Assembly (NCBI GenBank): GCA_977017645.1
Contig: OZ360226.1
Location: 66,464,001 to 66,528,000, forward strand
Source: Torpedo marmorata
Taxonomy: Eukaryota
Length of the DNA stretch: 64,000 bases
Reading direction: 5' to 3'
Shown here one piece after another: positions 3,101-36,847 of the stretch. Both the position numbers and the translations under genes were made by a program. Numbering within the stretch: the first letter of the stretch is position 1; the number at the start of each line of letters is the position of its first letter. The notes below the pieces were generated by a model. The model did no database searches and was not told the DNA's origin. It saw only the letters and a program-made list of their open reading frames with translations.

Positions 3101-6100
3101 AAGAATCTATCATTCAATTCAATACAATGTTGGAGAAGAACTGTCATCATCAGCAGATTCGGAAGATGGAGGGAGAAAGAAGAGAGGGTATGAGGAAATG
3201 GAGAGAGAAGTTGAAGAGATGGAGGGAGAGAAAAGAGAAATAAGTGGAGGAGAGGAAACTCAGTTATTTGAAGGTAAACAAGAAATATCAGCTACTCTTA
3301 TTCAAGCTATAAATAACAGAACAAGTGTCTACAATAAATCAATGTATAGAATAATGATTTACAGCTATAGACAGTAATTTTACTGAGTTTAAGGAAGAAA
3401 TTAAAGACATTAAACACAATATGAAAAAATGTGCAACTGCTGTGGATAAAGTAACACTGAAAGTCCAGAAAGTTGAAAATGAGGTTAAAGAATGTCATGA
3501 AGAAATGGTGGACTGTAAAGATATAGTGGACAAAGTGGAAGACTCATTTACAGGCTGGGAACAACAAGGAAATTAACTTTTACAAAAAATAGATTCATTG
3601 GAGAATCATAGTCGAAGAAATAATGTTAAAATTGTGGGATTTCCCGAAGATTATGAAGGGATAAATTCAACTGAATTCTTTCAAAATTGGATTCCAAAAA
3701 CTTTGGGTAGTGAAAATTTTCCAAATGGACTTGAATTAGATAGAGCTCATAGAGATAACAGAAGGAAATCATATCCTGGAAAAATGCCACGCTCAGTGTT
3801 ACCAGCATAAAGAGAAGATATTGAGATTAGCTAGAAAGAACCAAGGTCCATTGATGATCAATAAAAACAGGGTATTTTTTATGCTGATTTAAGCGCAGCA
3901 ATAATTAAAAATCGAAAACAATTTAACCCAGCCAAAGCAATTTTTTGGAACAAAGGATATAAATTTTCATTTAGATATCCTACCATATTGAAGGTACAGT
4001 CTGGTGAAAATCAGTCATCTTTTTTTACTGACCATCAAGAAGCTTTGAAGTATGCTAATTCACTCCTAAATTTCAAGAAAGATCAAGATTTGATTGGGCA
4101 ATCTCCAGTTATTATGGAACTGACTCAGGACTTGTTTCAATTAAGAGAGAAATTTCAAGTAACTTCAGGATAAGAAGATGTAGTCGAAATAGAGGATGAT
4201 CAAGTTAACAGAGATCTTGAAAATGCTGGACTGGGATGAAGAAACAATAACAAATGTTATGTAAAATCTGTTTGGGGGGGTTGATTTTTGTCTTCTCCGC
4301 ACCTAACCACACTTCACCTTAATGGCGAGGGCCACTTCCCGAACAGTAGAGGGTGGTAGTACCAGTATTATATATTTTTTCTTTTTTCTTTTTTTTTTAA
4401 ATATAGTGGTTTTTTAAACTTTTTTTATTTCTTACTTTTTTAAATTTTCTAAGGAGATGTCAAATATATTACAAATGTGGAAGGGGGAACAAGTCGGACG
4501 GATAGAGAGAGACTTATTAAATATTAGAAATGGCGGATAGTAAATCAATAAATGTACTAAGTATGAATATAAATGGGCTAAATAATCTGATTAAAAGGAA
4601 GAAAACTTTAGCATATATTAAAAAATTAAAAGTTGATATAGCTTTTTTCACAAGAGACACATTTGAGAGAAATAGGACATCAGAAGTTGAAAAGAGAATG
4701 GGTTGGTCAAGTGGTAGCATCTTCATTTAATTCTAAAGCAAAAGGAGTTGCTATATTAATTAATAAAAAGTTACCTTTTAAAATACAATCTGTGGTTATA
4801 GATGTTGCAGGAAGATTTGTCTTAATAAATTGTCAAATATATTCAGAAATGTGGACACTTATGAATATATATGTGCCAAATATGGAAGATGAACAATTTA
4901 TTCAAGACTCTTTTATGCATTTGTCGGAAGCAAATGATAATATTTTAATTAGTGGAGATTTTAATTGTTGTTTAGATCCAATAATGGATAAAACATCGAA
5001 ATAAATTATTAGAACAAAAACTGCTAAAATAATTCTTACTTTGATGAAAGATTTAAATTTAATAGATATTTGGAGGAAGTTGCATCCAAAAGAAAAAGAC
5101 TATTCCTTTTACTCATTTAGACATGATTCTTATTCTGGAATAGACATGTTTTTTATTGTCATCACAATTAGAAGAGAGGGTGACTCAAGTGCAATATGAA
5201 GCAAGAATAATTTCTGATCATTCACCTCTTTTAATGTCATGGATAATTCCAGAAAAAGAAAAAAAAATATATAGATGGAGATTTAATTCTTCCTTATTGA
5301 AAATAATGTTTTTTTGTAATTATATCAGAAGAGAAATTCAAGAATTTTTACAGATTAACTCTAATTCGACTAATAATACATTTATTATTTGGGTAGCTTT
5401 AAAGGCTTGTTTAAGAGGTCAAATAATAAATTATTCAGCAAAAATTAAGAAGGAATATATTCGGGAATTGGATAATCTGGAGAGGGAGATTGAGTCTTTG
5501 GAGAAAGATTTGCAAGAAATGGGAACAGAAGAAAAGAGAAAAAACTTAATTAAGAAAAAATTGCATTATAATACATTACAAACATATAAAATGGAAAAAT
5601 TAATTGAAAGAACTAAGCAAAGATATTACCAACTGGGAGAAAGAGCTCATAAAGTGTTAGCATGGCAACTAAAGAAAGAACAAATTTCTAGAACTATAAG
5701 TGCTATAAAAAAGTATTCAAAGAAAATAACATATAAACCTCGAAAAAATAAATGATTAATTTAAGGAATTTTATTTAAATTTATATTTGTCTCAAACTGA
5801 TAAAGATGAATCTAAAATTAATGAATATTTATCTAAAATTAAGTTATCTAGATTAAATACCCAAAGTAAAATTTTTTAAGATGCATCATTTACGATGAGA
5901 GAAGTTAATGATGCTCTTTAATTCCTTAACAAGTGGAAAATCTCCTGGGGAGGATGGTTTCCCATCAGAATTTTATAAGGAATTTAAAGATTTATTGTTA
6001 CCTCCATATATGGAGGTGTTAAAACAAATAACAGAATCTCATTCGCTATTGGAAACATTTTCAAATGCAATAATAACAGTTATACCTAAAAAAATAGAGA

Positions 6101-8597
6101 TTTGTTGAAAACAGAATCATATAGACCAATTTCATTGTTAAATGTGGATTATAAGATAATGGCAAAAATTTTAGCAAATAGAGTGGCAAGATATTTACCA
6201 GATTTAATTCATGCAGATCAGACGGGTTTTATTAAGAATAGATATTTAAAGGTTAATATTGCCAGATTGATTAGTTTAATAAATGTGGCACAAAAGAAAG
6301 AGGAATTAGCACTAGTATTAACATTAGATGCTGAAAAGGCTTTTGCTAGATTAGAATGGAATTATTTATTTGAAGTGTTGGAAAAATTTGGTTTTGGAAC
6401 TACATTTATTAATTAGATTAAAACTATATATAAAGATCCCTCTGCCAGGGTGGTGACAAATGGACACATTTCTTCAAATTTTTGTTGACTAGGTCAACTA
6501 CACAAGGATGTCCTTTGTCGCCAGCATTGTTTATTTTAGCAATAGAACTTTTAGCAGAATTAATTAGACAAGATATTAAGATTGTAGGTATTAAAGTTGG
6601 AAAAGAAGAACATAAAGTTAGTTTATTTGCAGATGATGTATTGATTTACATGACAAAACCTATTAATTCTTTAACACAATTGACTGTTTTATTGAGAGAA
6701 TATGGGGAAATATCTGGTTATAAAATTAATTCTATAAAATTGAAATTATGCCATTAACACAAGGAGACTATAATAAATGTAAACAAATTACACGATTTAA
6801 ATGGTCAAATAATGGAATTAAATATTTGGGAATAAAAATATATACAAAATTAGGTAATTTATATAAATTAAATTATTTACCTTTATTTACTAATATTAAA
6901 AAGAATTTAGAGAGTTTGAACGATTTACCTATAACTTTAATAGGAAGGGTAAATTGTATCAAAATGAATGTTTTTCCAAGAATTCAATTCCTTTTTCAAT
7001 AAATTCCTTATGAAATTCCTCAAAAATTCTTTAAGGATTTAAATTTAATTATTAGGAAATTTTTGTGGAAGGGAAAGTTGGCCAGAGTAGGTATGGAAAA
7101 ATTAGCTTGGAATTATGAAATGGGAGGTTTACAATTTCCCAATTTTCAAAATTATTATAAGGCAGCTCAATTAAAATTTATTAATGAAATGTTTGATTTA
7201 GAAAAATCTTCTGCTTGGATTAGAATAGAATTAAATAATATAGGAGAAGATTTGAAAGAAGAAGTTATTTATAAATGGAATTCTAAATTATTATTAAGGG
7301 GAGGTAAAATTCTCCTATTTTAAAACATTTGTTAGAAATATGGAATAAATTTGATCGGGAGAGGAGGGAAAGGGTTAATTTCTTGTAAAATGCCTTTATC
7401 CCAAAATAAACTTATCCCTATTACTATTGATAATAAATTGTTTAAAATTTGATTTCAAAAAGGGATTAAAAAATTAAATGATTGTTTTGAAGCTAGTAAA
7501 TTTATTACTTTCCAAAGCATGAGAGAAGTTTAAATGTATTAAATAATACACATTTTGCTTATCATCAAATAAAAACATTTTTAGTTGAAAAGTTAGGTCA
7601 TAGTTTAATTTTACCAAGACAAAGTGAATTGGCATCATTAGTTACTAATGGGGGTATAAATAACTTTATTTCTCAAATGTATAGATTGTTACAGAAAAAA
7701 ATGCGTAAACCAGGAATTCATAAATCAAGATTAAAATGGGAATCAGATTTGAATGTAACAATAGATGAAGAACATTGGAAAGAAATATGTAAACAAAGTA
7801 TGATGAAAATTATTAATGTTAGATATAGGTTGGTGCAATATAATTTTTTGAATCAATTATATTTAACGCCTAAGAAACTAAAGAAATTTAATTTGAGATT
7901 ATCACTTATGTTTTAGATGTAATAGAGAGGAAGGTTCTTTTGTACATTCTACGTGGCTTTGCCCAAGGATACATGTTTTTTGGCTGAAAGTTAAAAAAAT
8001 TTTAGACAAATTATTAAGAATTACACTCCCAGTGAATCCTATGATATTTTTGTTTGGAGATATTAAAAGAATTACTGTAGAAATTAAAATGAAATTAAAT
8101 ATGTATCAAATAGAATTTTTGCGAATTGCTTTAGCTGTTTCAAAGAAATGCATTGCTATTACATGGAAGTCTGATGTAGATTTAGGGTTAGAGAGATGGC
8201 ATGCAGAACTTCGTTCATGTATACCACTTGAAAAAATTACTTTAAATTTACGTAATAAATATCATTTATTTTTGAAAATATGGAGCCCATATATAAAGAC
8301 TGTGGGTTTAAGGATTTGAGGATCTCTTGCTATCAGGTCTGACTGGTGAACCTGTGTTCCACAATAAAATTAATGTATAGTTGTTTTTTTTTAGATTGAC
8401 ATTCTCCAATTACTTTTTTTTTTTTTCTTTCTTTCTATATTATTAGAGTAGTAGTGGTGGGTGTGTTAGGGAGGGGGAAGGGAGGGAGGGGAGGGTGAAA
8501 ATATATCATATGTATTCTGATAATTTTGCATTTTATAAACATGTATTATCGTGTGATTTAAAATTTTAAATACATTTTTTTTTAAAGAAAAAAAAAA
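3101..8597 (+). mobile_element. Third L1 (5'-truncated within ORF1, nearly complete ORF2)
   Basis: Second ORF1 copy ENHSRRNNVKIVGFPE (3598-4173), then ORF2; A-rich end at ~8597; same family as the L1 at 46511-55254. Confidence 0.85.
4530..8319 (+). pseudogene. L1 ORF2 (APE endonuclease, RT, Cys-rich domain), frameshifted
   Basis: Motifs NINGLN, GDFN, SDH, YRPISLLNVDYK, LDAEKAF, QGCPLSP, FADD across several ORF pieces. Confidence 0.92.
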
Positions 8598-12039: not shown

Positions 12040-13500
12040 CACGGGGCTCTGTCAGAAATATTTAAAATGTCCTTAGCCAAGAGTGTGGTGCCAGGGGATT
12101 GGAGGGTAGCTTCCATTGTTCCGTTGTATAAAAAAGGCTCCAAAAGTAACCTGGAAATTATAGGCCGGTGAGCCTGATGTCAGTAGTAGTTGAAAGTGTT
12201 CTAAGAGATCAGATATACAATTATTTGGATAGCCATGGACTGATTAGCGATCGTCAACATGGCTTTGTGCGTGGTAGGTCATGTTTAACCAGTCTTATAG
12301 AGTTTTTCCAGGAGGCTACCAGGAAAGTTGACGAAGGAAAGGCTGTGGATGTTGTCTACATGGACTTTAGTAAGGCCTTTGACAAGGTCCCACATGGGAG
12401 GTTAGTCAGGAAGGTTCAGACGCTAGGTATTCATGATGAAGTAGTAAACTGGATTCGACAATGGCTGGATGGGAGAAGCCAGAGAGTAGTGGTGGATGAT
12501 TACTTCTGAGACTGGAGGCCTGTGACTAGTGGTGTGCCTCAGGGATCGGTGCTGGGACCATTGTTGTTTGTCATCTATATCAATGATCTGGATGATAATG
12601 TGGTAAATTGGATCAGCAAGTTTGCAGATGACACTAAGATTGGAGGTGTTGTGGACAGCGAAGAAGCTTTTCAAAGCTTGCAGAGGGATCTAGATCAGCT
12701 GGAAAAATGGGCTGAAAAATGGCAGATGGAATTTAATGCAGACAAGTGTGAGGTTTTGTATTTTGGAAGGACAAACCAAGAAAGGACATACACGGTAAAT
12801 GGTAGGGCACTGAGGAGTGCGGTAGAACAGAGGGATCTGGGAATACAGATACATAATTCCCTGAAGGTGGCGTCACAGGTGGATAGGGTTGTAAAGAGAG
12901 CTTTTGGCATATTGGCCTTCATAAATTGGGATGTTATGTTAAAGTTGTATAAGACATTGGTGATGCCAAATTTGGAGTATTGTGTGCAGTTTTGGTCACC
13001 TAACTACAGGAAAGATAGAAAGAGTGCAGAGAAGATTTACTAGGATGTTGCCCGGACTTCAGAAACTGAGTTACAGGGAAAGGTTAAACAGGTTAGGACT
13101 TTATTCCCTGGAGCGTAGAAGAATGAGGTGAGAATTGATAGAGGTATTTAAAATTATGAGGGGATAGACAGAGTAAATGTAGATAGGCTTTTTCCACTGA
13201 GGGTAGGTGAGGTACAAACCAGAGGACATGGGTTAAGAGTGAAAGGGGAAAAGTTTAGGGGTAACATGAGGGGGAACCCCTTCACACAGAGAGTGGTAGG
13301 GGTGTGGAGCGAGCTTCCAGCTGAGGTGGTGAATGCGGGCTCAATTTTAACATTTAAGAGGAATCTGAACAGGTACATGGATGGGAAAGGTATGGAGGGC
13401 TATGGACTGGGTACAGGTCAGTGGGACAAGGCAGAAAAAATGGTTCAGCACAGACTAGAAGGGCCGAAGAGGCCTGTTTCTGTGCTGTAATGTTCTATGG
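12040..13500 (+). mobile_element. CR1 LINE, 5'-truncated (RT plus 3' end)
   Basis: DFSKAFDKVPH, SGVPQGSVLGP, KFADDTK; CR1 3' end gggccgaa...gcctgtttctgtgctgtaatgttctatg. Confidence 0.93.
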
Positions 13501-15790: not shown

Positions 15791-16592
15791 GCAGACTCAC
15801 AACAAATTGAGAGAAGAAATTAGTCTACAGTGGGTGTCCTCTATGATAAGACCATGTCCTCTAGTTTCTGGCCTCTCTTATGATGGGAAACACCCTCTCA
15901 GCATTTACCCTGTTTAGACCCCAAAGAATCTTATGGGATTCAGTAAGTTTGCCTTTCATTCCTAAGTGCCAATGAGTAGAATTTCAATCTGTTTGACCTT
16001 TGCTCTTTTGACAATCACTCCATACTCAGGATCATCAAGTAAACCTGAAATGTTAAATTGCTTCTTTTAATATAAATATCTCCTGACCAGCTGCATGTTC
16101 CTGGTATGTTTTGATTTTATTTTGGATTTCCATCATTTGTTATATTTTGCTTTGTAGGACAGGAAAACTGGGGTCAGATCCTATGTAATTTCTATCTTTT
16201 CTTCCCACAATAACCTAGCTATTTGACCTCGGTAACTTTATACTTTGAGGAATCCCAAGCTTTTATTAACCTTGATATTTTTCAATATTGCTGGTTTCAC
16301 TGATAGTGTGGCACCATTCTCTTCTCCTGAGAAAACATATGTATTCTTTAGTAGCTTGACAAGGAGATCCTTTTGTGTCATTGTGGTGGTGGTGGGGGGT
16401 GGGGGGGGGTGGTGGGGTGGGGGTGGGTGGGGGGGGTGTTGGGCGCTGTCTGGCGTTAGTGCGGGCAGCGCTGGCGGAACCTAATGCCAAGGCGGCGATG
16501 CAATCCTGGAACCGGTGATCGACTGCGGCCATGGTCAGCATTCCGACCCAGTGGCTCCCTGACCCCGACCCGCAGCCATAGTTGGGGGGGGG

Positions 16593-19500
16593 TGATATGC
16601 CTATCAATTAGCACTCAAGAGACTATGAGAGGGTTAACGAACCATAGGCTTTAATAGACATAAAAACAGACTTACAGTGGACCTGCAGATCTATCCCGGA
16701 CTGTGGGCGGAGCCGTGGCACACAAGCCTTTATTCGGGTGAGAAAAGGGGAGGGATTACCTGGACACCCAAAGGAGGGGAGAGGAGTCGCCGGGACAGAC
16801 AGCAGTACATAATATACACAAACAGTGGTTTACCACATTCACCCCTTCTTTTAAAAGAGTCCAGCGGGGTGAAGTGGCCACAATACAATCACTACAGGAA
16901 TTCAAAATATTTACAGTCATATTTTACAGGTCAAGGCGATCCGGTGGTTTGGCTCGCCTTTGTGACCTGCGCAGTACCCTGGGTGCGGGTTGTGGTGCAG
17001 GGGGTACCCTGGATGCGGGTTGTGGTGCAGGGGAAGATGGCAAAGCCGTCGCCTCCTCCTGTGGTGCTGGGTGAGATGGCAGGATTGTGGGTTCCATCGA
17101 GGGTGCCTGGTCTGACGTTGTAGAAGAGGGAATAGGGAGGGGCCGCAGCGAGTGGTCTTGCCCGTCGATAGGTTCCTCCGGCGCTCCCGCGGGCGCCAGG
17201 TCCCGAATTGAGACCGTGTCCTCTCTCCCATCCGGGAAGACCACGTAGGCGTACTGCGGGTTAGCGTGCGCTAACTGCACCCTCTGGACCGCGGGCTCAT
17301 ATTTGCTGCTCCGGAGGTGGTTGCGGAGCAGCACCGACCCCGGAGACATCAGCCAGGCAGGCAGGGCGGTTCCGGTGTTCGACCTCCTGGAGAAGGAGAA
17401 AAATCTCTCATGAGGCGTTACATTGGTGGCTGTGCACAGTAAGGACCGTATCGAATGGAGGGCTTCGGGGAGAACATCTTGCCAGCGGGAAACCGGCAGT
17501 CCCCTGGACTTGAGAGCCAGGAGCGCCGCCTTCCAGACAGTGGCGTTCTCCCTTTCCACCTGTCCATTACCTCGGGGGTTGTATGCGGTGGTCCTACTAG
17601 TGGCGATGCCCCGGGTCAGCAGGTACTGGCGCAGCTCCTCACTCATAAAAGCTGATCCCCGGTCGCTATGAATGTAGTTCGGGAAGCCGAACAGCGTAAA
17701 TACCTGGCGAAGAGCTTTTATGGTTGAGGCAGCCGAAGTGTCGGGGCAGGGAATGGCGAAGGGGAACTGCGAGTACTCGTCAATAATGTTCAGAAAGTAC
17801 ACATTGCGGTTCGTGGAGGGAAGGGGCCCCTTGAAGTCAATGCTGAGACGTTCAAAGGGGCGAGTGGCTTTGATCAGCTGTGCCTTGTCGGGGCGGTAGA
17901 ACTGGGGTTTGCACTCCGCGCAAACCCGGCAACTGCTGATCATTGTCCTGACCTCTTCCAGGGAGTATGGCAGGTTCTGTGACTTCACGAGGTGAAAGAG
18001 CCTGGTAATTCCTGGGTGGCATAGGTCGTCATGTATGGCGTGTAATCGGTCGATCTGCGCGCTGGCGCACGATCCCCGGGATAGAGCATTGGAGGGCTCA
18101 TTGAGCTTCCCGGGCCGGTACATGATGTCGTAATTGTAGGTGGAGAGCTCTATTCTCCACCTCATGATCTTGTCATTTTTGATCTTACCCCGCTGCTGAT
18201 TGTTGAACATGAATGCCACAGAGCGTTGATCTGTCAGCAGGGTAAAATGCTTACCGGCGAGATAGTGCCTCCAATGCCTGATGGCTTCCACTATGGCCTG
18301 GGCTTCCTTCTCCACTGCTGAGTGCCGAATTTCGGGGCCCTGGAGGGTTCGAGAGAAAAATGCCACCGGCCTTCCCGCCTGGTTGAGGGTAGCAGCCAGC
18401 GCGAAGTCCGATGCGTCACTCTCCACCTGGAAAGGTGTCTCCTCATCCACTGCGTGCATTGTTGCTCGCGCAATGTCCCCTTTTATAAGGTCGAACGCCT
18501 TACGTGCCTCCGAAGCAAGGGGAAATGCAGTGGATTTCACAAGGGGTCGGGCCTTATCCGCATTATTTGGGACCCATTGGGCATAATAGGAAAAGAACCC
18601 GAGGCATCGTTTAAGGGCTCTGGGATTGGTGGGGAGCGGAAGTTCCAGCAGGGGCCGCATGCGTTCGGGGTCTGGTCCAATTACCCCGTTCTCGACCACA
18701 TACCCCAAAATAGCGAGGCGAGTGGTACCAAACACGCATTTTTCTTTGTTATACGTGAGGTTTAGAGCTTTGGCCGCCTGCAGGAACCTCCGGAGGTTGT
18801 TGTCATGGTCCTGACGATCATAACCACAGATGGTAATGTCGTCAAGATATGGGAAAGTGGCTTTAAGTTTGTAATGGTCCACAATCCTGTCCATCTCCCG
18901 CTGAAAAACAGAAACACCATTAGTAACACCAAACGGAAGGCGCAGGAATTGGAACAGCCTGCCATCTGCCTCGAACGCGGTGTATGAACGGTCCTCCCGA
19001 TGGATAGGGAGCTGGTGATATGCCGATTTCGTCGATGGTGGAGAAGAGCCGGTATTGGGCAATTTGGTTCACCATCTCCGCTATCCGTGGTAGCGGGTAT
19101 GCGTCTAGTAGCGTAAACCTGTTAATGGTTTGGCTGTAGTCCACCACCATTCTGCTCTTGGCCCCTTTTACTACAACCACCTGGGCTCTCCAGGGACTAT
19201 TACTCTTCTCTATAATCCCTTCCTGTAGCAATCTCTGTACCTCCGTCTTGATAAATGCTCTGTCCTCGGCACTGTAACGCCTGCTTTTAGTTGCCACAGG
19301 CCTACAGTCCGGGGTCAGGTTCGCAAACAACGACGGAGGTGAGATCTTAAGGGTGGAGAGACCACAGGTGGTTTCGGGCGTGCTATCCAGAAACTGGTGG
19401 TTGGCCACAGTGATCGCGGGGAGAGGACCGTCATACCACATTGTAACACTCTGCAAATGGCTCTGAAAATCCAAACCCAGTAATACACAAACGGTTCATG

Positions 19501-21195
19501 ACAAACAAGGAAAATTGCCGGTACTCTGTCCCTTGTACCACAATGTTCGCCACACACGTCCCCCGGATGTCTGTTGTGTGGGACCCCGACGCCATGGCCA
19601 CCCTCTGGCTTACCGGTACGATCGTTAGGCCACAGCGTTGAACAGTATCCGGGTGGATAAAGCTCTCAGTGCTGCCAGTGTCGAATAAGCACGTTATCTT
19701 GTGTCCCTCGACCAGTATGTCCATCATGGATCTTGTCAGCTGGTGGGGAACGTTCTGGTCGAGGGTGACGGATGCCAAAGTTGGGGTGAGGTCGTCTTGG
19801 TCCGAGGTCATTAAAGATGGCCGCTCCCGTGGGTGGTCGAGGGTGACGGATGCCAAAGTTGGGGAGAAGTCGTCTTGGTCCGAGGTCTTTAAAAATGGCC
19901 GCTCCCGTGGGTTGCACGTGTCACTGGAGGTCTCTGTACAAAATGGCGGCGCCGGAAGTGCAGGAAGTAACGAGGTACTGCTCTGAGATGGCGGCGCCGG
20001 AAGTGCCAGCATGAAAGATGGCCGCTTCCACTCCTCACACGCGGTCGGCGCCAGAAGTGCCAGTCTGCAAGATGACCGCTCCCATCTCTCGCACGCGGCA
20101 CTACTCGGGCCCGCGCGCGGCTTGGAGCGGCAGGCCTTCGCGAAGTGGCCTTTCTTGCCGCAGTTGGAACAAGTCACGTCGCGGGCCGGGCAGCGTTTCC
20201 TCGGATGCTTGTCGAGCCCGCAGAAGTAGCACTTCTCGGGCTCGCGATTAACAGCTGCGGCGGTGAGAGTAGCGTCGGTAGCGGTCGGGTCGCGGGTAGC
20301 GGCGGCAACAATCGGGTCGCGGGCCACAGTGGCCACAGTTGGATCGGTGGGGCTGGGGGATGGGGCGATCCACGCATTAGGCTGGGGGTCCCGCGTCTGC
20401 ATCGCGTCGGAGTTCTGCAGCGCGGACTCCAGCGTGCGAGCCATCGCCACCGCAGAACGGAGATCGAGGTCGGAGTGCTCCAGCAGCCGCTGGCGTACGT
20501 ATACCGACCTCATCCCCATAATAAAGGTGTCCCTCTCCAGCAGATCAACATGTTGTTCTTCGGTCAGCGCTTTACAGGCGCACGCTCACACTAGGGACTG
20601 GATGTCCCTGACAAAGTCCACTATTGACTCCCCGGCCCGCTGTTTTCGCAACAATAGTCTGTACCTTGCGTAGACCTCATTAACAGGGGTCACATAGATC
20701 TTTCTCAGTGCCTCCATCGCCTCGTCGTACGTTCCGCATTTCCAGATGGTCGAATACAACCGAGGGCTTACCCTGGATACGAGGACCTCTAGTTTCTGCT
20801 CGTCGCTTTTGGCCTTGACCTCTTTTGAGAACGATCGGAGGCAGCGTAGCCAGTGTTCGAATGCATGGCCAGCATCAGGAGCTAAAGGGTCGATGTCCAG
20901 TCGGTCCGGTCGGAGGGCGCCTTCCATAACTTTTCTTATGTCTATTAAATTGATATGCCTATCAATTAGCACTCAAGAGACTATGAGAGGGTTAACGAAC
21001 CATAGGCTTTAATAGACATAAAAACAGACCTACAGTGGACCTGCAGATCTATCCCGGACTGTGGGCGGAGCCGTGGCACACAAGCCTTTATTCGGGTGAG
21101 AAAAGGGGAGGGATTACCTGGACACCCAAAGGAGGGGAGAGGAGTCGCCGGGACAGACAGCAGTACATAATATACACAAACAGTGGTTTACCACA
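16593..21195 (-). mobile_element. Full-length young Gypsy/Ty3 LTR retrotransposon
   Basis: 245-bp LTRs at 16593-16837 and 20951-21195 (TG..CA, one mismatch seen at 16672/21030); G-run flanks on both sides; PPT aaaagaaggggtgaa; order gag-PR-RT-RH-IN. Confidence 0.97.
16924..20927 (-). pseudogene. Gypsy gag-pol with one nonsense codon and two frameshifts
   Basis: Zinc knuckles (CYFCG..H..C, CSNCGKKGHFAKAC), protease LFDTGS, RT YLDD, RNase H DAS, integrase HHCC plus DDE. TGA at 20586; frameshifts near 19490 and 19030. Confidence 0.93.
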
Positions 21196-21434
21196 GGGGG
21201 GAAGCAGGGAGAGTTGGGTCAAGTTGAAGGGTTGAAATTAAAAGGGGAACGCGCCCGATTTCTAACTGGCCGCAGTTTGCATGTGCTGAAGCCCCCCTCC
21301 CAGTTGCGTCTTGTTGCAGGAGACGGCACACCTGAGGTTGCGGCTCGATGTCAGGGAGTGCATCCTCCCTCGTCTGGCTGCAGGGAGTCGCGCGCCTGCA
21401 GATCGGGGTCAGGGAGCCGCGCGCCCTCCGACCC

Positions 21435-22533
21435 CCCCCCACAGCGCCCGTCGACACCCCCACCCCGGACAGCGCCCGCCGACCCCCCCCCCCACCCCGG
21501 ACAGCGCCCGCCGACCACCCACCCCCGGACAGCGCCCACCGACCACCACCTCCCCCCCTCCCCGCCTCACCCCGGACAGCGCCCACCGACCAACACCTCC
21601 CCCCCTCCCCGCCTCACCCCGGACAGCGCCCACCGACCACCCCCCCCTCCCCGCCCCGCCCCGGACAGCGCCCGCCGACCACCCCCCCCTCCCCGCCCCG
21701 CCCCACCCCGGACAGCGCCCACCGACCACCACCTCCCCCCCTCCCCGCCTCACCCCGGACAGCGCCCGCCGACCACCCACCCCCGGACAGCGCCCGCCGA
21801 CCACCCCGGACAGCGCCCACCGACCACCCCCCCCTCCCCGCCCCACCCCGGACAGCGCCCGGCGACCACCCCCTCCCCCTCCCCGCCCCGCCCCACCCCG
21901 GACAGCGCCCGCCGACCACCCACCCCCGGACAGCGCCCGCCGACCACCACCTCCCCCCCTCCCCGCCTCACCCCGGACAGCGCCCACCGACCACCCCCCC
22001 CTCCCCGCCCCACCCCGGACAGCGCCCACCGACCACCACCCCCTCCCCGCCTCACCCCGGACAGCGCCCACCGACCACCACCTCCCCCCCTCCCCCCCCC
22101 ACCCCGGACAGCGCCCACCGACCACCACCTCCCCCCCTCCCCGCCTCACCCCGGACAGCGCCCACCGACCACCACCTCCCCCCCTCCCCCCCCCACCCCG
22201 GACAGCGCCCACCGACCACCACCTCCCCCCCTCCCCGCCTCACCCCGGACAGCGCCCACCGACCACCACCTCCCCCCCTCCCCCCCCCACCCCGGACAGC
22301 GCCCGCCGACCACCACCTCCCCCCCTCCCCGCCCCACCCCGGACAGCGCCCACCGACCACCACCTCCCCCCCTCCCCGCCTCACCCCGGACAGTGCCCGC
22401 TGACCACCACCTCCCCCCCTCCCCGCCTCACCCCGGACAGCGCCCACCGACCCCCCCCCCCTCCCCGCCTCACCCCGGACAGCGCCCACCGACCACCCCC
22501 CCCTCCCCGCCTCACCCCGGACAGCGCCCGCCG
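21435..22533. repeat. C-rich minisatellite, variable ~20-50-bp units with core ccccggacagcgcccRccgaccacc
   Basis: More than 20 copies of ggacagcgccc separated by C-runs of variable length. Confidence 0.95.
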
Positions 22534-23081
22534 CATGGCGCCTTTTTCATGTGCTCTCGCTCCCCGACTTCAGAACCTGGCTGTGACCCTGCTCCCCCCT
22601 TGCTACGCCACTGATTTGAAGTATCCAATTCTCAACTTCATTTCACACAGGATGTACCTAACATGAATAAACTGATTGAATACAAGAATAAGCTGCCACA
22701 GAAATAGGACACTACAAGTGGTTGTGAAAATTGGTTTAATTTGACTTTTTTATTGGGCGTGTTGCTTCCAGTAAAGATAGTTTGATTATTTGAAATTTCT
22801 CTCACTTTTGGAATTTGAATTAAAGCGGTGAATATTGGGAGTTGGAAACCAACATGACAGGAGGAGTGGTGGGAGATGAAGTGTGTGTGAATTTTAGTTA
22901 CATCCCTTCATCTGTCAGAATTGATCATTTTTCTCACCTTCCTGTTCATCTCCTCACATGTAAGGATTCCCTGATCTACAAACACTGGTGAACATCAGTT
23001 TCATGGATTTTGCTCCTCGTGGCTCACTAGCTGCATACATTTGCTCAGATTTTCCTTTAGCCTGCACTTACCTGGATCTTC

Positions 23082-25360
23082 AAAGTCAAAGTTCAGATTT
23101 ATTATCAGAGTACATACACGCATCACATACAACCCTGGGACTCTTTTTCCTGCGGGTGAGGCAGAATTACCACTTATTGGTAGTGCAAAATAAAACTGTA
23201 CTCAACATACACATGTAAACAAATAAAGAAATGTAAACAAATTGACTGTGCAAAACAGAGAGAAAAAAAATCAATAAAGTGCAAAAGTAAGAGTCCTGAA
23301 ATGAATCCCTAATTGAGTTTGTTGTTGAGGAGTCTGATGGTGGAGGGGTGGCAGCTGTTCCTGAACCTGGTGGTGCAAGTATTGTGGCACCTATTCTTTC
23401 TTTTAAAAAAATTATTTAAAATTTTAAATCACTCGATAATACATATTTATAAAATGCAAAATTATCAAAATACATGTGATATATTTTCACCCCCCTCCCT
23501 CCCTTTCCTAACCCTCCCACCCTTACTATTCTAATAATATAGAAAGAAAGAAAGAAAAATATAAAATATGGAGAATGTCAATCTAAAAAGAACAACTATA
23601 AGCTAATTTTATTGTGGAACACAGGTTCACCAGTCAGATCTGATGTCCAGAGATCTTCAAATCCTTAGACCCATAGTTTTTATATATGGGCTCCATATTT
23701 TCAAAAAGAAATGATATTTGTTACGTAAATTCTAAGTAATTTTTTCAAGTGGTATAGCTGAACGAAGTTCTGCATGCCATCTTTCTAACCCTAAATCTAC
23801 ATCCGATTTCCATGTAATAGCAATGCATTTCTTTGAAACAGTTAAAGCAATTCGCAAAAATTCTATTTGATACATATTTAATTTCATTTTAATACTAATT
23901 CTTTTAATATCTCCAAACAAAAATATCATAGGATCCATTGGGAGTGTAATTCTTAATACTTTATCTAAAAACTTTTAAACTTTCAACCAGAAATCATATA
24001 TATTTGGACAAAGCCACGTAGAGTGTACAAAAGAACCTTCCTCTATTACATCTAAAACATAAACCTGATAATGTCGAATTAAATTTCTTAGGTGTTAAAT
24101 ATAATTGATGCAAAAAGTTATATTGCACTAACCTATATCTAACATTAATAATCTTCGTCAAACTTTGTTTACATATTTCTTTCCAATGTTCCTCATCTAT
24201 TGTTACATTCAGATCTGATTCCCATTTTAATCTTGATTTATGAATTCCTAATTTAGGCATTTTTCTCTGTAGCAATCTATACATTTGAGAAATAAATTTA
24301 TTTACACCCCCATTAGTAATTAATAGTTCCAATTCACTTTGTCTTGGTAAAGTTAAACTATAACCCAACCTTTCAAATAAAAATGCTCTAATTTGATAAT
24401 AAGCAAAAAGTGTATTGTTTAATACATTAAACTTCTCTTTCATTCTTTGAAAAGTAATAAATTTACTAGCTTCAAAACAATCATTTATTTTAAATTCCTT
24501 TTTGAAACCAAATTCTTTCTTGATTGCAGCAGCGAGAACAGAGCGTGTGCTGGGTGGTGTGGATCCTTGATGAATGCTGCTGATCTCCGACAGCAGCGTT
24601 CCCCATGGATGTTCTTGATGGTGGGAAGGTGTTTGCCAGTAATGTCCTGGGCTGTGTCCACTACCTTTTGGAGGGCTTTACGCTCAGGGGTATTGGTATC
24701 CCCATACCAATGCAGCCGGTCAGCACACTTTCAACCACACATCTGTAGAAATTTGCCAGGGTTTCCAATGTCATACCAAACCTCCATAAACTCCTGAGGA
24801 AGTAGAGGCGCTGACATGCTTTCTACACGATGCCATTAGTGTGTTGGCTCCAGGAAAGATCCTCGGAGATAGTGACTCCCAAGAACTTAAGTGTGCTCAC
24901 CCTCTCCACCTCTGATCCCCCAATGATCTCTGGATCATACACCTCTGGTTTTCCCTTCCTGAAGACAACAATCAGCTCCTTGGTTTTGGTGACATTGTGT
25001 GCGAGCTTGTTGTTGGTGCACCATTGAGCCAAGTTTTCAATTTCCCTCCTGTATGCTGACTCATCGCCCCTTTTTATACAACCCAATACCGTAGTATCAT
25101 CAGCAAATTAGGAGATGGTGTTATTGTCATTCCGAGCCACACAGTCATAGGTGTATATCAAGTAGGGCTAAGAACGCAGCCATGTGGTGCTCCGGTACTG
25201 ATAGAGATTGTGCAAGAGATGTTCTTTCCAATCCTCATTGATTGTGGTCTGGAGATGAGGAAATCCAGGATCCAATTACATAGTGGGGTGTTGAGTCCCA
25301 GGTCTTGGAGCTTGCTGATCAATTTTGAGGGGATAATGGTGTTGAATGCCAAACTGTAGT
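23082..25360 (-). mobile_element. Rex1/Babar LINE (3' part) interrupted by an L1
   Basis: [34 protein letters not shown]; 3' end matches the Rex1 copy ending at ~63770. Confidence 0.9.
23403..24511 (-). mobile_element. 5'-truncated L1 nested in Rex1
   Basis: TSD attctttctt at 23393-23402 and 24512-24521; ORF2 C-terminus nearly identical to 7500-8320. Confidence 0.9.
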
Positions 25361-29050: not shown

Positions 29051-31295
29051 TGGAGATTTAATAAACAAAACACATGGTCTCTGGAGCAGCCTTCAGAATA
29101 TTCATTAAATCCACTTTCTCTCCCACTTCCCTTGACACAACCTAATGCCAAAATATATGCTTTTCACAGCCACCAATGCCATTCCTAGTGTCAATCTACA
29201 GCCCACCATTCAACATGCTCAGTGGCTAGGGCAGAAGATGGGGTCAATGAATCATTTTGTGAAAGTCAAAACTTGGTATTCCTATTTTTTGAAAAAAAAA
29301 AGTCCATATGTTGAATATTCTTCTTCTTATAACTTGTATATATGGTGCAACTCTGCAGAGGTGACAGCCTCTGTGATTTGAACCCCTTCAAGGCTTTCGC
29401 ATAGACTGCTCCATCTTCAGATATATAGGGAGGTACTAAGCTATTAAGCCATTATGTGGGCTACTATGAGTCAATGAGGTGCCAAACATCTAAGGCTAGG
29501 GTAGTAATGCATCCAACTCAAGGAAAAATTCATATCATTCAAGCCCTCAGTGAGTTCTTAAATTAATTCATTCAATTATTACATTTGATCATTTTTGCAG
29601 ATGACCTTATTCTATGCAAATGGTTGCCATCAGAAATCCTGCAACATCATAACACTGAAATACTCAGCAGATCAGGCAACATCTATGGAGAAGAAAGAAT
29701 GTATGATTGATGACCTTTCATTAGAATTAGGCAAAACAGAAAACAACCATATTAAGGTCACAAAGAAGGGGATACGTAGAGAAGACAAAAGATTGTGGAC
29801 ATAAGTTAATGTACTCCATTTGGCACCAACAATGTGGTTCTCCTCTACATTAAAGAAACAAAATGCAAATTTTTGACTGTTTTGTGAAGCACTTCTTTCA
29901 GTCCACAAGGTGACCATGAGCTTCCAGTTGCCAGGGACTTCAGTTCTCCCTCCTATTTGTACTCTGAATCCCTGTCTTTGGCCTCTGAGTGCTCCAGTAA
30001 AGCCCAACAAACACTAACATGCTTTTGTTCTCTCCACCTTTCCCCCTTTCCTGGAACTTGCTTGTTATTTAACCTTTGCCTCCTTCTTATGAAAGCAAAT
30101 TGATTGAAATGTTAAATCAGTTTCTCTCTCCATAATGCTGCCATACTTCCTGAGTAGTTTGAGCAGTTTCTTTATTGATGTCATGCTGCTCATGCTTAAG
30201 ACAGATTCCTCCAATTCATTCCTGCTACATCAGATGTATCCTCGTCAGTGGTGCTTTCAGAAGTACACTGCAGCTGAAGAGACAATGGATCCCGTTGTTC
30301 CCTCCAATGCAAACATTCCATTCCTGTCCTTCTCCAGCACTTGCTCTTGTTATGGACCATGACTGACAGTTTGGACTGCGGACGGTAAGCAGGAAGGATG
30401 AAGTCTTTTGAAGTATACACTGGGACCTGGTACTGAAAGAATTAACTTGCCCAGGACTTCTTGTATTTACCAGAGAGAGACATCAGGGGGAGAAAAACTG
30501 TGAAAAGGACACTTGGTGAAAAACTTTGGACAAAACAGGCTGGAAAGAAACTCTCTCTCTATTGTGAGGCCTAAAGTGAAAACTAAAAGTGTGGCAGTTT
30601 TGGAGTTGAAAAGGCGGGAGAACTCAGTAGGATCCAGGCCTGTGCATCCCAGAGAAGAAATGAGGAGAATAGCACAGAGTCTCTTGAATCAGAAAAGTCC
30701 AGGCTTGTGCATCCCAGGGAAAAGGCTGGGAGAAAAACAAGGCCTGATGATTCGGCAGAATCCTGAGTTGTGAGAACAGCTTTTGTGAGGAACCGGCTGT
30801 GAAATCCAAGTACACGCCTTAATACAAAACGGATCTGAATTCGCAATCCTTATGAAAACACAAGAAGGGAACGTCATCAGAGAAGAAAAGCAAGCCAAGT
30901 ATTCGTAAGCATAAACAGTCATTGTCTCTCTCCAACATTCATTAAGAAGTCCTTCTACCAGCACACAGAGCTGAATTTGGAACCTGAACTTAGAGAGTGA
31001 ATTTTTGTGGACTGTATTATTTTTTTGACTGACTTGTTTTTATGACTGACCTGGGGTTTTTGGGAAAAGTTTTTCTATTTTTACATGAGAGTTGGGCACA
31101 GACTGTAATGGTCTGGGCTTTACACACACACACACACACACACCTTTTAGATAAGAATAGTGTTTATAGACATTTATAGTGGGGTTAATTGTTGTGAAAT
31201 TATATGTTTAATTGTCTTTAATTCATATAAATTTCAATTTTACACCTTTTGCATTGCATCTTCTGTCGTTGCTGGTTTGAATTTTGTAACAAAAT

Positions 31296-31315
31296 TGGGG
31301 GCTCGTCCTTGGGAT
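31296..31315 (+). promoter_or_regulatory. tRNA-Pro primer binding site
   Basis: tgggggctcgtcc(tt)gggat versus the canonical TGGGGGCTCGTCCGGGAT, 4 nt after the 5' LTR. Confidence 0.85.
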
Positions 31316-31426
31316 TTGAATTAAAAATCCATCTTGGTAATTGAAGGAATCCCAGTTTGGTTTAAGACATTCCTTTTGTAAAGCTAATTAAAAGCTAGTG
31401 TGTGTGTAACGAAAAATCAGCAACAA

Positions 31427-34400
31427 TGGATGCAGAACGTTTTTTGGAATCACCTGAATCTGATACTTTAAAAAAGGGAAAAAGGAACAGTTAGTGGCTA
31501 TAGCAACAGGGTTGGGCATTGCTTCTGTTAAATCATTTATGGAAAAGGCAGAGATTGGGAGAAAAATTGTCAAATACTATATAAAAGAAAAAAAGTTTGA
31601 GGAGAGTGTGTTAGAGCAGTTTCCCAAGGGTAAACCTTCTGAAAAAATACAGTTGGAAATAAAGAAATTGGAATTGAAGGCAGCCAGGGAACAGAAGGAA
31701 ATTGGAATTGGAGGCAGCCAGGGAACAAAAGAAATTGGAATTGGAACAAAAGAAATTAGACTTAGAATTCAATGAGAGAAATAGGAGATATATGCTGGAA
31801 AAGATAAAGTTGGAAAATGAGAGGAGACAAGAAGAGCACCAAGATCAAATTCATCATCCTGTTGAGGGGTTTTTGGCTAGTAGAGAAGTTAGGTTGGTTC
31901 CTCCATTTGAGGAGGCAGAAATAGATAAGTACTTCCAGCATTTTGAGAAGGTGGCTGTGAAATTAAAATGGCCACAAGACCAATGGTCTGTTATGTTACA
32001 AAGTGTAAAAAAAGGAAAAGCTCAGCAAGCTTATTCTACTCTTACCACGGAGCAAGCTGCTGATTATGAAACGGTGAAAAAGGCTAAACTCCAGGCTTAT
32101 GAGTTAGTTCCAGAGGCTTATAGACAGAAGTTTAGAAATTTAAAAAGATCAGCAACCCAATCTTACACAGAGTTTGCCTATGAAAAGGTTGTGTATTTTG
32201 ACCAGTGGTGCACATCTAAGGCGGTAAACAATGATTACAATCAATTGAGAGAATTGATAATAATCGAGGAGATAAAAAGGTATGTTCCTGAGGATATTAA
32301 GGCATACTTAGATGAAAAGGAAGTGAAAACTTGGCAAAATTCAGCTAAGTTAGCAGATGAATATGCTTTAACCCACAAGCCTAAGTGGACGTCAGGCAGA
32401 ATTTTCCAAAAGGTCACTGTGGATAATCCCAAGCAAGTGGAAAGTAAATTTGGAAGTGGTGTTAAGGAAAGGGATGAAGGAAAGTGGAAAAGGGAAAACC
32501 ATTCGGGTCCCATTTGCCACTACTGTTGGAAGGCTGATCATATGCTAGCAAGCCGTCCAGTGTTGAAAAAGAGAGAAAAGGATGCAACACCTAATGCTTG
32601 TATTCAGAGTGAGAAGAGGAATAACACCCAGGAAGGAGATAAATTTACTGACAAAGTTAGAGATGTATTTAAACCTTTTGTGACTGATAGTTTTGTTTCA
32701 GTTAAGGCAGGATCAAAACAAGTTCCAGTGAAAATCTTGCAAGATACTGGAGCTGCTCAGTCACTTGTGTTAGATAGTGTCTTGGAATTTTGTGAAGCTA
32801 CTGACACTGGTGACATAAATTTAATTAAAGGAATTGGGGGTGATGTTGAGTCCATTCCTTTGCACAAAATAATGTTGGACTCAGACTTGGTGGAAGGACC
32901 TGTTATAATAGGAGTGAGATCAGAGTTGCCAGTAGAAGGAGTCTCACTGTTGCTAGGCAATGATTTGGCCAAGGGTAAAGTAGTTCCTGCAGCGCGAATG
33001 ACCACTAAGCCAGTCATTGATAAGTCAGAGAAAGACTCTGATATTTATCCGGCATGTGCCATAACCAGGGCCATGTCTAAGAAAAATATCACTGTAGAGA
33101 AGGCAGTGGAAAATAACTTGGTGAAAGAAAAAGACAGTGATAATCAAGAAAACCTGAAAAAGGTTGAGCAATCTCCTATGTTACACCCATCCACTGATAA
33201 GACACCTAAAGGCACAGATTTGTCACTATTCCGACAGGAGCTAATAGCAAGGCAAAAGGACGATCCTGATCTTGCTGAGGTGAGGGATAAGGTTCTCTCT
33301 GAAGAGGAGATTAAAAAGGTGCCAGTGGGTTATTATGAAAAAGATGGGGTGTTGATGAGAAAGTGGAGACCATGTGATGTTCCTGCCAATGAAGAATGGG
33401 CAGTAGTGCAGCAGGTTGTGATCCCTAAAGTATATAGCGATGCAATAATAACTTTGGCTCATAGTACACCCTTAGGTGGTCACCTTGGGGTGAAGAAAAC
33501 TATAAGGAAGATAATGAAACAATTTTATTGGCCCAGTTTGAGAAGGGAGGTTGTAAGCTTTCCCGGGCCTGTCACACTTGTCAGGTGGTGGGTAAACCAA
33601 ATCAGGGTGTCCTGTGGCACCCATGCAACCTATCCTTGCTTTCAGTGAGCCTGTCTCGAGAGTAATTGTGGACTGTGTTGGCCCATTGCCTAAAACCAAA
33701 GCGGGGAATGAGTATTTGTTAACAATTATGTGTGCAGCCACCAGATTTCCAGAGGCAATTCCTGAGAAACATTAAAGCAAAGTCAATTGTAAAGGCTATG
33801 GTAAAGTTTTTCACCTTGGTAGGTTTGCCAAGGGAAATTCAATCAGATCAGGGCAGTAATTTCATGTCAGGCGATTTCCAACAAGTGGTTGATGGACTGG
33901 GAGTTAAACAGATTGTATCCTCTGCGTACCATCCAGAAAGTCAAGGGGCCTTGGAGAGGTTCCATTCCACTTTGAAAAACATGATTAGAACCTATTGTTG
34001 TGAGAAGGAAAAAGATTGGGATGAGGGGGTTCATTTGTTGTTATTTGAAGTGAGGGAGTCTGTCCAAGAATCACTTGGTTTTAGTCCATTTGAGTTAGTT
34101 TTCGGACGAGGTGAGAGGTCCTTTAAGATTATTAAAAGAACAGTGGATTAATAGTGATGTGCATTTAAATCTGTTAGATTATGTTTCAAAATTTAAGGAT
34201 CGGTTGCATTGGGCTTGTGAGATGGCAAAGGAGAATTTAAAGGCCACTCAACAGAGAATGAAGGTTTGGTATGATCGAAAGGCTAAGATGAGAACTTTTA
34301 AACCTGGTGAGAACGTATTAGTTCTGTTTCCCATCCATTCAAATCCTCTTAGGGCTAGATTTTCAGGACCCTATAGAGTTAAGTCAAAAATTAATGATGT

Positions 34401-35256
34401 CACCTATGTCATAGAAACACCGAATCGCAGACGAGAAACACAGGTCTGTCATGTGAATATGATTAAGCCATATTTTGAACAGGTGCCACACAAAGGGACT
34501 GAAAATTTACCAGAGGTACTGGTTATTGACAGGGGTAAGGAGGAGACAGATAAAACCAGTTTCAGAGAGGGTCATGGGACTGTTAATTCTCTGGGTTATG
34601 TAGTAGGACAGGGGAAGTTGGCGCCAGTAGAGGCAAAGGTTGTGACTATTTCCGAGTTCCCTGTTCCAACTGGTAAGAAAACTCTGAGGACGTTCCTGGG
34701 AATGATTGGCTACTACCGCAAGTTCTGTAAAAACTTTGCTGATCTTGCGCTCCCTCTCACAAATTTGCTTAGAAAGAGAGAAAAATTTGTATGGTCGACA
34801 GGTTGTCAGGAAGCATTTGTCAAATTGAAAGCCATGTTATGCCACCAACCTGTGCTTAAGTCACCTAATGTAGAACAGCCGTTTTCTTTAGCCGTGGATG
34901 CCAGTGATGAAGCTGTGGGTGCGGTGCTGTTACAGAAGAAAAACGAAGAGGACATTGACCATCCGGTATCCTACTTCTCGAAGAAGTTCAATGATCATCA
35001 AAGGAATTATTCAACCATAGAAAAAGAGTTGTTGGCTCTTGTGTTGGCTCTACAACACTTTGATATTTATATCTGCACAGCTCAAAAACCACTCATAGTG
35101 TATACTGACCATAATCCATTAGTTTTTCTTTATAAAATGAAAAATAAGAATCGACGGTTGTTGAATTGGAGTCTAATTTTGCAAGAATATGATTTGGTAG
35201 TAACACATATAAAATGGAAAGATAATGTAATTGCTGATTGTCTTTCTAGATGTTAA
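31427..35256 (+). pseudogene. Gmr1-type gag-pol (SCAN-like capsid, PR, IN, truncated RT, RNase H)
   Basis: LVPPFEE..YFQHFEK, DTGA, AH..GGHLG, IQSDQGSNF, HPESQGALERFH, GPY, DASDEAVGAVL, ADCLSR; no YxDD motif found. Confidence 0.9.
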
Positions 35257-36847
35257 ACTTTATCAATGAAAATAGTTCATATTTTGTATTTGTGGATGAA
35301 CATTGTGGGTTTTGTTTATATTGTAACACCTCAATTTCTAAAATTTTGTTTTTTTTAGACCAAAACTTTCTTTGTGGGTGGGAGGTGTTATGGACCATGA
35401 CTGACCATTTGGACTGCGGACGGTAAGCAGGAAGGATGAAGTCTTTTGGAGTACACATTGGGACCTGGTACTGAAAGAGTTAACTTGCCCAGGACTTCTT
35501 GTATTTACCAGAGAGAGACATCAGGGGGAGACAAACTGTGAAAAGGACACTTGGTGAAAAACTTTGGACGAAACAGGCTGGAGAGAAACTCTCTCTCCAT
35601 TGTGAGGCCTAAAGTGAAAACTAAAAGTGTGGCAGTTTTGGAGTTGAAAAGGCGGGAGAACTCAGTAGGATCCAGGCCTGTGCATCCCAGAGAAGAAGTG
35701 GGGAAAATAGCACAGAGTCTCTTGAATCAGAAAAGTCCAGGCTTGTGCATCCCAGGGAAAAGGCTGGGAGAAAAACAAGGCCTGAAGATTCGGCAGAATC
35801 CTGAGTTGTGAGAACAGTTTTTGTGAGGAACCGGCTGTGAAATCCAAGTATACGCCTTAATACAAAACAGATCTCAATTCGCAATCCTTATGAAAACTCA
35901 AGAAGGGAACGTCATCAGAGAAGAAAAGCAAGCCAAGTATTCGTAAGCATAAACAGTCATTGTCTCTCTCCAACGTTCATTAAGAAGTCCTTCTACCAGC
36001 ACACAGAGCTGAATTTGGAACCTGAACTTAGAGTAAATTTTTTGTGGACTGTATTATTTTTTTTGACTGACTAGTTTTTATGACTGACCTGGGGTTTTTG
36101 GGGAAAGTTTTTCCATTTTTACATGAGGGTTGGGCACAGACTGTAATGGTCTGAGCTTTATACACACACACACCTTTTAGATAAGAATAGTGTTTATAGA
36201 CGTTTATAGTGGGGTTAATTGTTGTGAAATTATATGTTTAATTATCTTTAATAAATTTAAATTTTACCCCTTTTGCATTGTGTCTTCTATCGTTGCTGGT
36301 TTGAATTTGTAACACTCTTCTTCATTTGTGATGTGTCCATTACTGGATGAAAACCAAATCTTTCTTACTGGACCCATCAAAGCATTAGTTTCTGAGCAAG
36401 TAGATGGTGGAGATAAGTCCCATGTCAGTTTTCCCTCAGAATAAGTACCTTCCCCTGAAGAGTCATTATGTGGTCGAGTCCCTCGTAGCTTGGATGGAGG
36501 CATTGTAGAGGATTAAATCCAATAGAGCTGTCAACAACCTTGCTTATCATTGTGCACCAGATTTTTCCACTCAGTGTTGACTTCAGATCCATATGAATGA
36601 GTGGAGTATGTAATGTGGCTGAATGAAATTGAATTCTACCAGCAACAAATTGTGTTCTGCTCCCCATTTTACTAATCACTGCTTAAACATCCTGGTTTCC
36701 TGCCTGTAACTGAATCACTGTTGGTTCTACTTCAGTTCCAACATAAACTTTGCAATCCATGTCGTGTACATAAAATAAACATTAAAATAAGATACAAAAA
36801 AATTAAAACAGTGCAACCATGCAGAGTTCACGTTAATTTCTGACAGC

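Follow-up and report, generated by a model that had tools for sequence, protein, structure and literature searches.

A clade of Gypsy retrotransposons, represented by one element in a stretch of 64,000 nt of the Torpedo marmorata genome (contig OZ360226.1; in the following called the window), probably primes reverse transcription with a segment of its own LTR, here termed the arm, rather than with a tRNA, the primer being copied into the primer-binding site. Self-priming with such inheritance of the primer, regardless of whether the arm anneals in cis or in trans, is considered very probable. Both statements are drawn from comparisons of DNA sequences and from predicted folds.

The features of the element are listed in Table 1. 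Its two LTRs differ solely at LTR nt 166, and judging by this near identity the element is a recent insertion. Target-site duplications of 5 bp were found in 53 of 61 full-length relatives as well. In the Pfam search gag gave a weak PNMA match only. In the window copy an in-frame stop in gag and frame changes in the region of the protease and the reverse transcriptase (RT) interrupt the reading frame; the relatives mostly have single open reading frames of about 1200 aa. Between the zinc knuckle and the protease a 78-bp tandem duplication with 95% identity is present (window 19756-19912). The family of the window element is young, since all 40 scored matches in the 6.2-Gb genome are 99-100% identical.

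Table 1. Features of the Gypsy element, numbered from the first nucleotide of the window
Feature	Position	Strand	Remark
Whole Gypsy element	16593-21195	minus	4603 bp
5' LTR	20951-21195	minus	245 nt, TG...CA
3' LTR	16593-16837	minus	245 nt, identical to the 5' LTR at 244/245 nt
Target-site duplication	21196-21200 and 16588-16592		5-bp C run (CCCCC)
Polypurine tract	16842-16852	minus	ahead of the 3' LTR
gag, zinc knuckle, protease, RT, RNase H, integrase	16924-20927	minus	Gypsy order, Pfam
Putative primer-binding site	20936-20949	minus	leader nt 2-15, fully complementary to the arm
Arm, likely self-primer	21008-21021	minus	14 nt, LTR nt 175-188, ATTAAA at its end (21008-21013)
Spacer base	20950	minus	single A after the terminal CA of the LTR
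Stacked stem, 5' side	21002-21007	minus	LTR nt 189-194, stacked on the arm duplex
Stacked stem, 3' side	20957-20962	minus	LTR nt 234-239; the LTR end lies in the 7-nt bulge that results
Predicted hairpin	21024-21052	minus	directly 5' of the arm, window's own lineage only
Upstream AATAAA	21087-21092	minus	LTR nt 104-109, putatively TATA-like; rival reading poly(A) signal
Initiator-like motif	21056-21063	minus	candidate start 21060 (LTR nt 136)

The leader between the 5' LTR and the gag start codon (20927-20925 on the minus strand) comprises 23 nt and contains no TGG-starting site after the LTR. An initial annotation of the window had described this arrangement and had stated that leader nt 2-15 match, as an exact reverse complement, a segment inside the LTR at 21008-21021, with pairing that covers the ATTAAA of the LTR; all of this was borne out by the sequence, the segment being LTR nt 175-188 and ATTAAA its last six bases. 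When the leader was shuffled, a 14-nt complement in the LTR arose in 1 of 20,000 cases. The predicted fold has a z score of -3.63 and was equaled in stability by 1 of 200 shuffles. The stem stacked beside the arm duplex measures 6 bp. The hairpin in front of the arm was considered as a general stop signal and rejected, as z was below -2 in just 3 of 24 subfamily representatives.

The junction was then searched for in the whole genome with a pattern consisting of the LTR end, the leader, and the ATG but excluding the arm. The pattern, in which leader nt 1-4 are fixed, matched 31,794 times, a control pattern not at all. The number of junctions is a lower bound, because the pattern misses a further, separate family that the clade has in this genome (L061-L090), whose perfect duplex is 18 nt long and whose arm ends in AGTAAA. 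The first 100 matches on one contig were fetched whole; for leader nt 1-4, which the search pattern fixes, this sample is not independent, and the same applies to the lack of TGG. Starting at leader nt 2, the perfect run of pairs is 14 in 52 of the 100 copies and 11 or more in 83, and the arm ends 53-57 nt ahead of the LTR end in 97. Two copies whose arm is deleted or was not found (L305 and L327) are included in these totals and left out of the counts per position. In the remaining 98 copies 1322 of 1372 cells of leader nt 2-15 are Watson–Crick paired with the arm and five are G-U. An extension of the pairing with one G-U and one mismatch, described in the initial annotation, is present in the window element; conservation of pairing beyond nt 15 did not hold up, because nt 16 is Watson–Crick paired in just 11 of the 98 copies. 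The duplex therefore has a sharp edge, and we rejected a function of the pairing past this edge.

The 14-bp duplex is intact in 29 of 30 fetched copies of the window element's family. Other families of the same genome, found with gag ends of distant relatives as queries, have at least 12 perfect pairs in 20 of 30 loci, and a second set of such loci has at least 12 pairs in 25 of 30. Their arm sequences are unrelated to that of the window element while the geometry is unchanged. In 24 of 24 subfamily representatives the local fold forms 11-14 of the 14 arm pairs. As controls for the clade, Gmr1-type and Mag-like elements were examined in this genome, and they carry ordinary TGG sites; the two labels were assigned from domain order and motifs.

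Could a host tRNA, a half-tRNA, or another small RNA prime at the leader, the match to the LTR being incidental? Priming by half-tRNAs exists in some copia lineages (PMC6317226, accessible part), and the set of host tRNAs compared was small (28 sequences covering six amino acids and nine anticodons, the cognate tRNAs of the TGG control elements not among them). Within this partial set the longest complement to any tRNA is 6-8 nt for all 100 leaders, so the search of the leader against host tRNAs yielded no match, and no Rfam family reached the cut-off over the region. Moreover, the leader varies between about 26 subfamilies and hence cannot pair with one fixed tRNA; among the 98 copies there are 26 distinct perfectly matched 12-mers, which no fixed host RNA can track. 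A host RNA as primer is therefore the least credible of the readings considered.

The duplex is found far beyond this genome. The nearest named proteins stem from rays and catsharks (64-82% identity), and further relatives from a sea anemone, a nematode, and many marine records. We collected 82 metagenome and genome-contig loci, 80 of which had enough upstream DNA (L096 and L138 had too little and were dropped); L173, a partial match in a bacterial record, was excluded from all counts. At least 11 of 13 pairs were found in 67 of the 80 loci, as compared to 1 of 465 null windows. When gag clusters were scored by their best member, 28 of 34 reached this value and six were without duplex. The families share one register, in which the CA of the LTR end is followed by one spacer base and 13-17 pairs, and the letters differ. 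The spacer base is A in 27 of 28 marine families. For 11 of 30 long loci the LTR end at this CA was confirmed by a second LTR, two of them being ambiguous by one base. A helix of at least 4 bp follows directly after the arm in 24 of the 26 subfamilies here and in 21 of the 28 marine families (null 37% and 27%, respectively). No confirmed relative was found among viral contigs. Some clade members (L171, L172, and the proteins P0013 and P0087) are situated in records labeled as bacterial genome bins and probably represent host contamination.

An argument for copying of the arm into the site comes from the way in which the two change. A tree was built from the coding DNA of 67 full-length copies, all with an LTR identity of at least 96%, and the minimum number of changes was counted per site, leaving out cells in which the two LTRs disagree and states seen once. 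At leader nt 5-12 the arm, the site, and the pair each require 30 steps; every one of these 30 inherited changes is double-sided. All 522 cells counted are Watson–Crick paired, with no G-U state. Shifted registers of arm versus site require 50-70 pair steps. Seven of the steps (at nt 5, 7, 8, and 12) are swaps between A-T and T-A, for which no route through G-U is possible. The duplex changes at 3.75 steps per site, close to third codon positions (3.96) and unpaired U5 (3.31), and leader nt 10 alone shows 13 steps. The arm positions of the AATAAA/ATTAAA signal change least, and some inherited mismatches occur at leader nt 13-15. Judging by these counts the duplex consists of a strict 11-nt core and a looser 3-nt edge. 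The stacked U5 stem behaved differently. Its 18 steps are all one-sided and none is joint, G-U and mismatch states are frequent, and two C-G pairs are invariant. By this pattern it evolves like an ordinary selected helix. The coding tree may differ from the history of the LTRs, and recombination could inflate the steps at all LTR sites, this control stem included.

Joint and near-neutral change without G-U is what would be expected if one strand is copied from the other; selection for a hairpin should slow down the change and make use of G-U intermediates. The covariation of LTR segment and leader, to which the initial annotation had pointed as a check, is present: the complementarity is kept with compensation both across families and on the 67-copy tree. 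Concerning the direction of copying, two of three informative copies have the new state in both arms while the site keeps the old one, a sample too small to be given weight. For one compensated pair (20942 and 21015) both changes are seen together in a contig of run X3, and X1 showed a G-U and X4 an apparent mismatch there; as contigs merge copies, these were left out of the evidence.

We considered two alternatives in which the duplex has another origin or purpose. First, the inverted repeat could be corrected at the DNA level, by template switching during replication or reverse transcription, and have no role in priming. This would likewise give joint changes at neutral rate and free of G-U. 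It leaves unexplained why the register to the LTR end is fixed across distant families, why the duplex has a sharp edge at 14 nt, why the adjacent stem is not corrected, and how an element without tRNA site is primed; we regard it as highly improbable. Second, the duplex could mainly be a regulatory hairpin hiding the 5' poly(A) signal or the region of the start codon, with another primer in use. HIV-1 hides its 5' poly(A) signal in a hairpin, and the initial annotation had suggested that the duplex silences the 5' poly(A) site. Consistent with this the arm ends in AATAAA or ATTAAA in the window element, in 26 of 26 subfamily representatives here, and in 18 of 28 marine families; the leader is present at the 5' end only; and the signal positions are those that change least. 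On the other hand, 10 of the 28 marine families keep the duplex without AATAAA or ATTAAA in the arm (two of the ten have a signal just downstream), so masking is not the common reason for the duplex. A selected helix tolerates G-U pairs and one-sided change, as the adjacent stem does, and the arm duplex does neither. Furthermore, the helix always ends one base from the LTR end, and the leaders of the clade, 14-55 nt long, hold no other primer site. A mainly regulatory role is accordingly very unlikely. The hexamer does lie within the stem in the window element and in all 26 subfamily representatives of this genome; masking of the 5' signal may at most be a secondary side effect.

Since a single base separates the site from the LTR and these leaders offer no other candidate, it would have to be the primer-binding site. 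Priming without tRNA from a segment of the R region, as proposed in the initial annotation, is the best explanation for a compensated duplex and for leaders that match no tRNA of the partial host set. For Tf1 self-priming has been proven, and within Gypsy the accessible parts of the literature surveyed attribute it to the Tf1/sushi chromoviruses. [quoted passage not shown] For the clade described here the following sequence of events is proposed. The 5' part of the transcript would fold so that the arm pairs with the site and is stacked on the short stem. By analogy to Tf1 the RNA would be cut at the 3' end of the arm (after ...AAA), i.e. between 21008 and 21007, probably by the RNase H of the element. 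RT would then extend the arm over the spacer base, U5, and the remaining R, of which about 20 nt would be left for strand transfer if the poly(A) signal is the one at the arm end. Finally, plus-strand synthesis would copy the arm back into the site, whereby a mutation of the arm reaches the site without a second mutation. Under such copying the duplex would drift near-neutrally and yet stay strictly Watson–Crick. Retroviruses inherit a copy of the primer and Ty1 and Ty3 are reported not to (PMC7472051, available part); the last step would therefore depart from Ty3, the studied Gypsy model.

Where the transcript starts bears on the route by which the arm reaches the site. The upstream AATAAA is present in 95 of the 100 sampled copies, and in 80 of these 95 an Initiator-type A follows exactly 32 nt past it. 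From this A to the end of the arm the distance varies between 50 and 74 nt in this genome, the counts not being independent as the subfamilies are related. The AATAAA together with the Initiator is best interpreted as a TATA-like promoter, with transcription beginning at LTR nt 136, which would place the arm inside the transcript (+40 to +53). An internal segment, rather than the 5' end, had been assumed in the initial annotation and agrees with the promoter-like spacing found in this lineage. If transcription starts 50-74 nt ahead of the arm end, this conflicts with the rule of Tf1 that the arm is the 5' end of the RNA. In the marine families, scored with the Initiator consensus, the score for an Initiator-like motif is highest 10 nt ahead of the end of the arm (mean 4.07 out of 6, compared to 2.38 +/- 0.46); a start there would yield a primer of 11 nt, the length used by Tf1. 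Nine bases ahead of the arm end, a G is conserved in 25 of 28 marine families and in 23 of 26 families here. A TATA box near LTR nt 22 was tried as well and rejected, 71 of 100 copies being without any TATAWW. Several marine families (L091, L092, L118, L125, and L171) have a GCCGCCAT-type motif 25-45 nt before the arm, which we take to be YY1-like; L092 in addition has TATATA followed 30 nt later by an Initiator-like motif.

Alternatively, the upstream AATAAA could serve as a poly(A) signal, the CA being the cleavage site that goes with it. If this signal were the working one, no R would be left for strand transfer and priming in cis would be excluded. A genomic pattern for poly(A) scars gave no match behind the upstream AATAAA and two matches behind the signal of the arm (control three), one of them ambiguous in an LTR of the element and the other unrelated. 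In four contig sets compared with the LTR regions no transcript start, end, or poly(A) tail was seen. One 3' LTR without the upstream AATAAA region (L374, 1330-1560, minus strand) enters an A tract about 35 nt past the poly(A) signal of the arm; this may reflect either a processed copy or an insertion of later date.

The same primer could also take another route, the arm being cut from the 3' copy of R or from a second packaged RNA and annealing in trans. The start then need not adjoin the arm, and the limit of 14 nt would result from trimming by RNase H. Annealing in trans fits all covariation data and also the promoter-like spacing with a start about 40 nt ahead of the arm, and it survives even if the upstream AATAAA is the poly(A) signal. 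Yet the 5' arm is only about 55 nt away from the site and the local fold forms in every one of the 24 representatives, so the local copy should win; nor is there a precedent in the accessible part of the literature surveyed. We therefore consider annealing in trans unlikely and prefer priming by the 5' arm in cis.

The element belongs to the Ty3/Gypsy group by its order of gag, protease, RT, RNase H, and integrase, by LTRs of the TG...CA type, by its polypurine tract, and by the short duplication. Its best match among solved structures is Ty3 Gag-Pol; a clade member scores 206 bits against the Ty3 RT, a Gmr1-type element 295. In a quick RT/RNase H tree of 50 rows, which held no chromovirus sequence, the 34 rows of the clade form a group with a long stem of its own (SH-aLRT 99), separate from nine Gmr1-type and seven Mag-like rows. 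In Gmr1 elements the integrase precedes RT, unlike the window element, where Pfam places it last. As the initial annotation had noted, the Pfam search detected no chromodomain in the integrase of the window element, and PF00385 (chromodomain) was missing from the precomputed Pfam lists of 120 of 120 relatives. A search with the Chromo domain gave 15 matches, counted on the Chromo domain alone, a search with DUF4939 gave none, and a search with SH3_Tf2-1 returned Gmr1-type elements. Lacking a chromodomain, the clade is not filed under Tf1/sushi, though it would work like Tf1. In size it resembles Cigr-1, which is compact, with 245-bp LTRs and one open reading frame of about 1200 codons; as the likeness is by size alone, identity with Cigr-1 is a lead only. 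The Cigr-1 clade occurs in Ciona and molluscs, and the available part of the source gives no priming mechanism (PMC6238403).

With Tf1 and Tf2 of Schizosaccharomyces pombe, Tj1, and the Tf1/sushi group the clade shares the Ty3/Gypsy domain order and the lack of a tRNA site (PMC10085805, PMC7175516, PMC4600332, as far as the parts available describe them). As in Tf1/sushi, according to the same accessible parts, the site right past the CA of the LTR complements a segment of the LTR, and a second helix lies beside the primer duplex. Apart from the chromodomain of Tf1/sushi, which the clade does not have, there are several differences. The duplex comprises 13-17 nt instead of the 11 described in the available Tf1 sources, the third duplex of the Tf1 'pretzel' described there is not seen in the clade (it was not above shuffles, with mean z -0.11 in 26 families here and 0.14 in 27 marine families), and the arm ends in a poly(A)-signal-like AAA and may be internal to the transcript. 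For Tcn1 chromoviruses and TAR (Houba/Osr-1) copia elements self-priming has been predicted from the same kind of complement between LTR and leader (PMC6317226), suggesting that it arose outside Tf1/sushi too; these are elements of plants and fungi from another superfamily or clade, and the accessible part of that paper holds no analysis of joint changes. Dictyostelium Skipper, fungal GalEa, and bivalve TRIMs are likewise described as lacking a tRNA site (PMC5006619, PMC5445492, PMC6934838, parts available). For Skipper and GalEa the authors, in these parts, found no complement in the LTR, whereas here it is exact and clade-wide. HIV-1 and MLV copy the primer into the plus-strand primer site as proposed here (PMC7472051, part available), but their primer is a fixed tRNA and copying restores one sequence, whereas the copying of an element-encoded primer would let the site drift.

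The literature surveyed, in which coverage was partial and an earlier mention is possible, contained no description of self-priming in an animal Gypsy clade outside the chromoviruses. Tentatively, a second, chromodomain-less animal Gypsy clade might have invented self-priming independently of Tf1/sushi, with the arm inside R (about +40 to +53, ending in a poly(A) signal) instead of at the 5' end of the RNA and with an inherited primer; primer and site would then be a freely drifting, self-copying pair that offers no target for silencing by tRNA fragments. If self-priming holds, it would be a common route in animals, given this second lineage with at least 31,794 junctions in the genome searched and with named relatives in rays and catsharks as well as in a sea anemone and a nematode, and the elements would escape the defense by tRNA fragments aimed at primer sites that is described in the available part of PMC7472051. 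Joint, G-U-free, and near-neutral change of arm and site would be a genomic readout of primer inheritance, usable for any suspected self-primer. Annotation pipelines demanding a tRNA site would miss or misfile such elements.

Further repeats were seen in the window and in the fetched loci. A Gmr1-type Gypsy element occupies window 30348-36314 on the plus strand, with the integrase before RT, LTRs of about 940 bp that are 94% identical, and a TGG primer site. This element and those of L231, L233, and L234 match just the second half of the RT/RNase H profile, and the polymerase core of these copies looks deleted in frame, judging from the profile matches. The LTRs of L231 are 100% identical, suggesting that a non-autonomous Gmr1-type lineage is still moved in trans. 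The LTRs of the Mag-like elements (L338-L343 and L234) measure about 220 bp, and their primer sites are of the TGG type; the Gmr1-type element of L234 is situated inside the Mag-like gag. A GC-rich tandem array with a unit of about 47 bp (window 21429-22565) starts about 230 bp beyond the 5' LTR, and a tandem array with a 27-bp unit, in which both strands have open frames, lies at 40607-41254. Broken non-LTR retrotransposons are found at 12150-13490 and at 3380-8382, 23636-24677, and 46610-55064; by their motifs they are one CR1-like and several L1-like copies.
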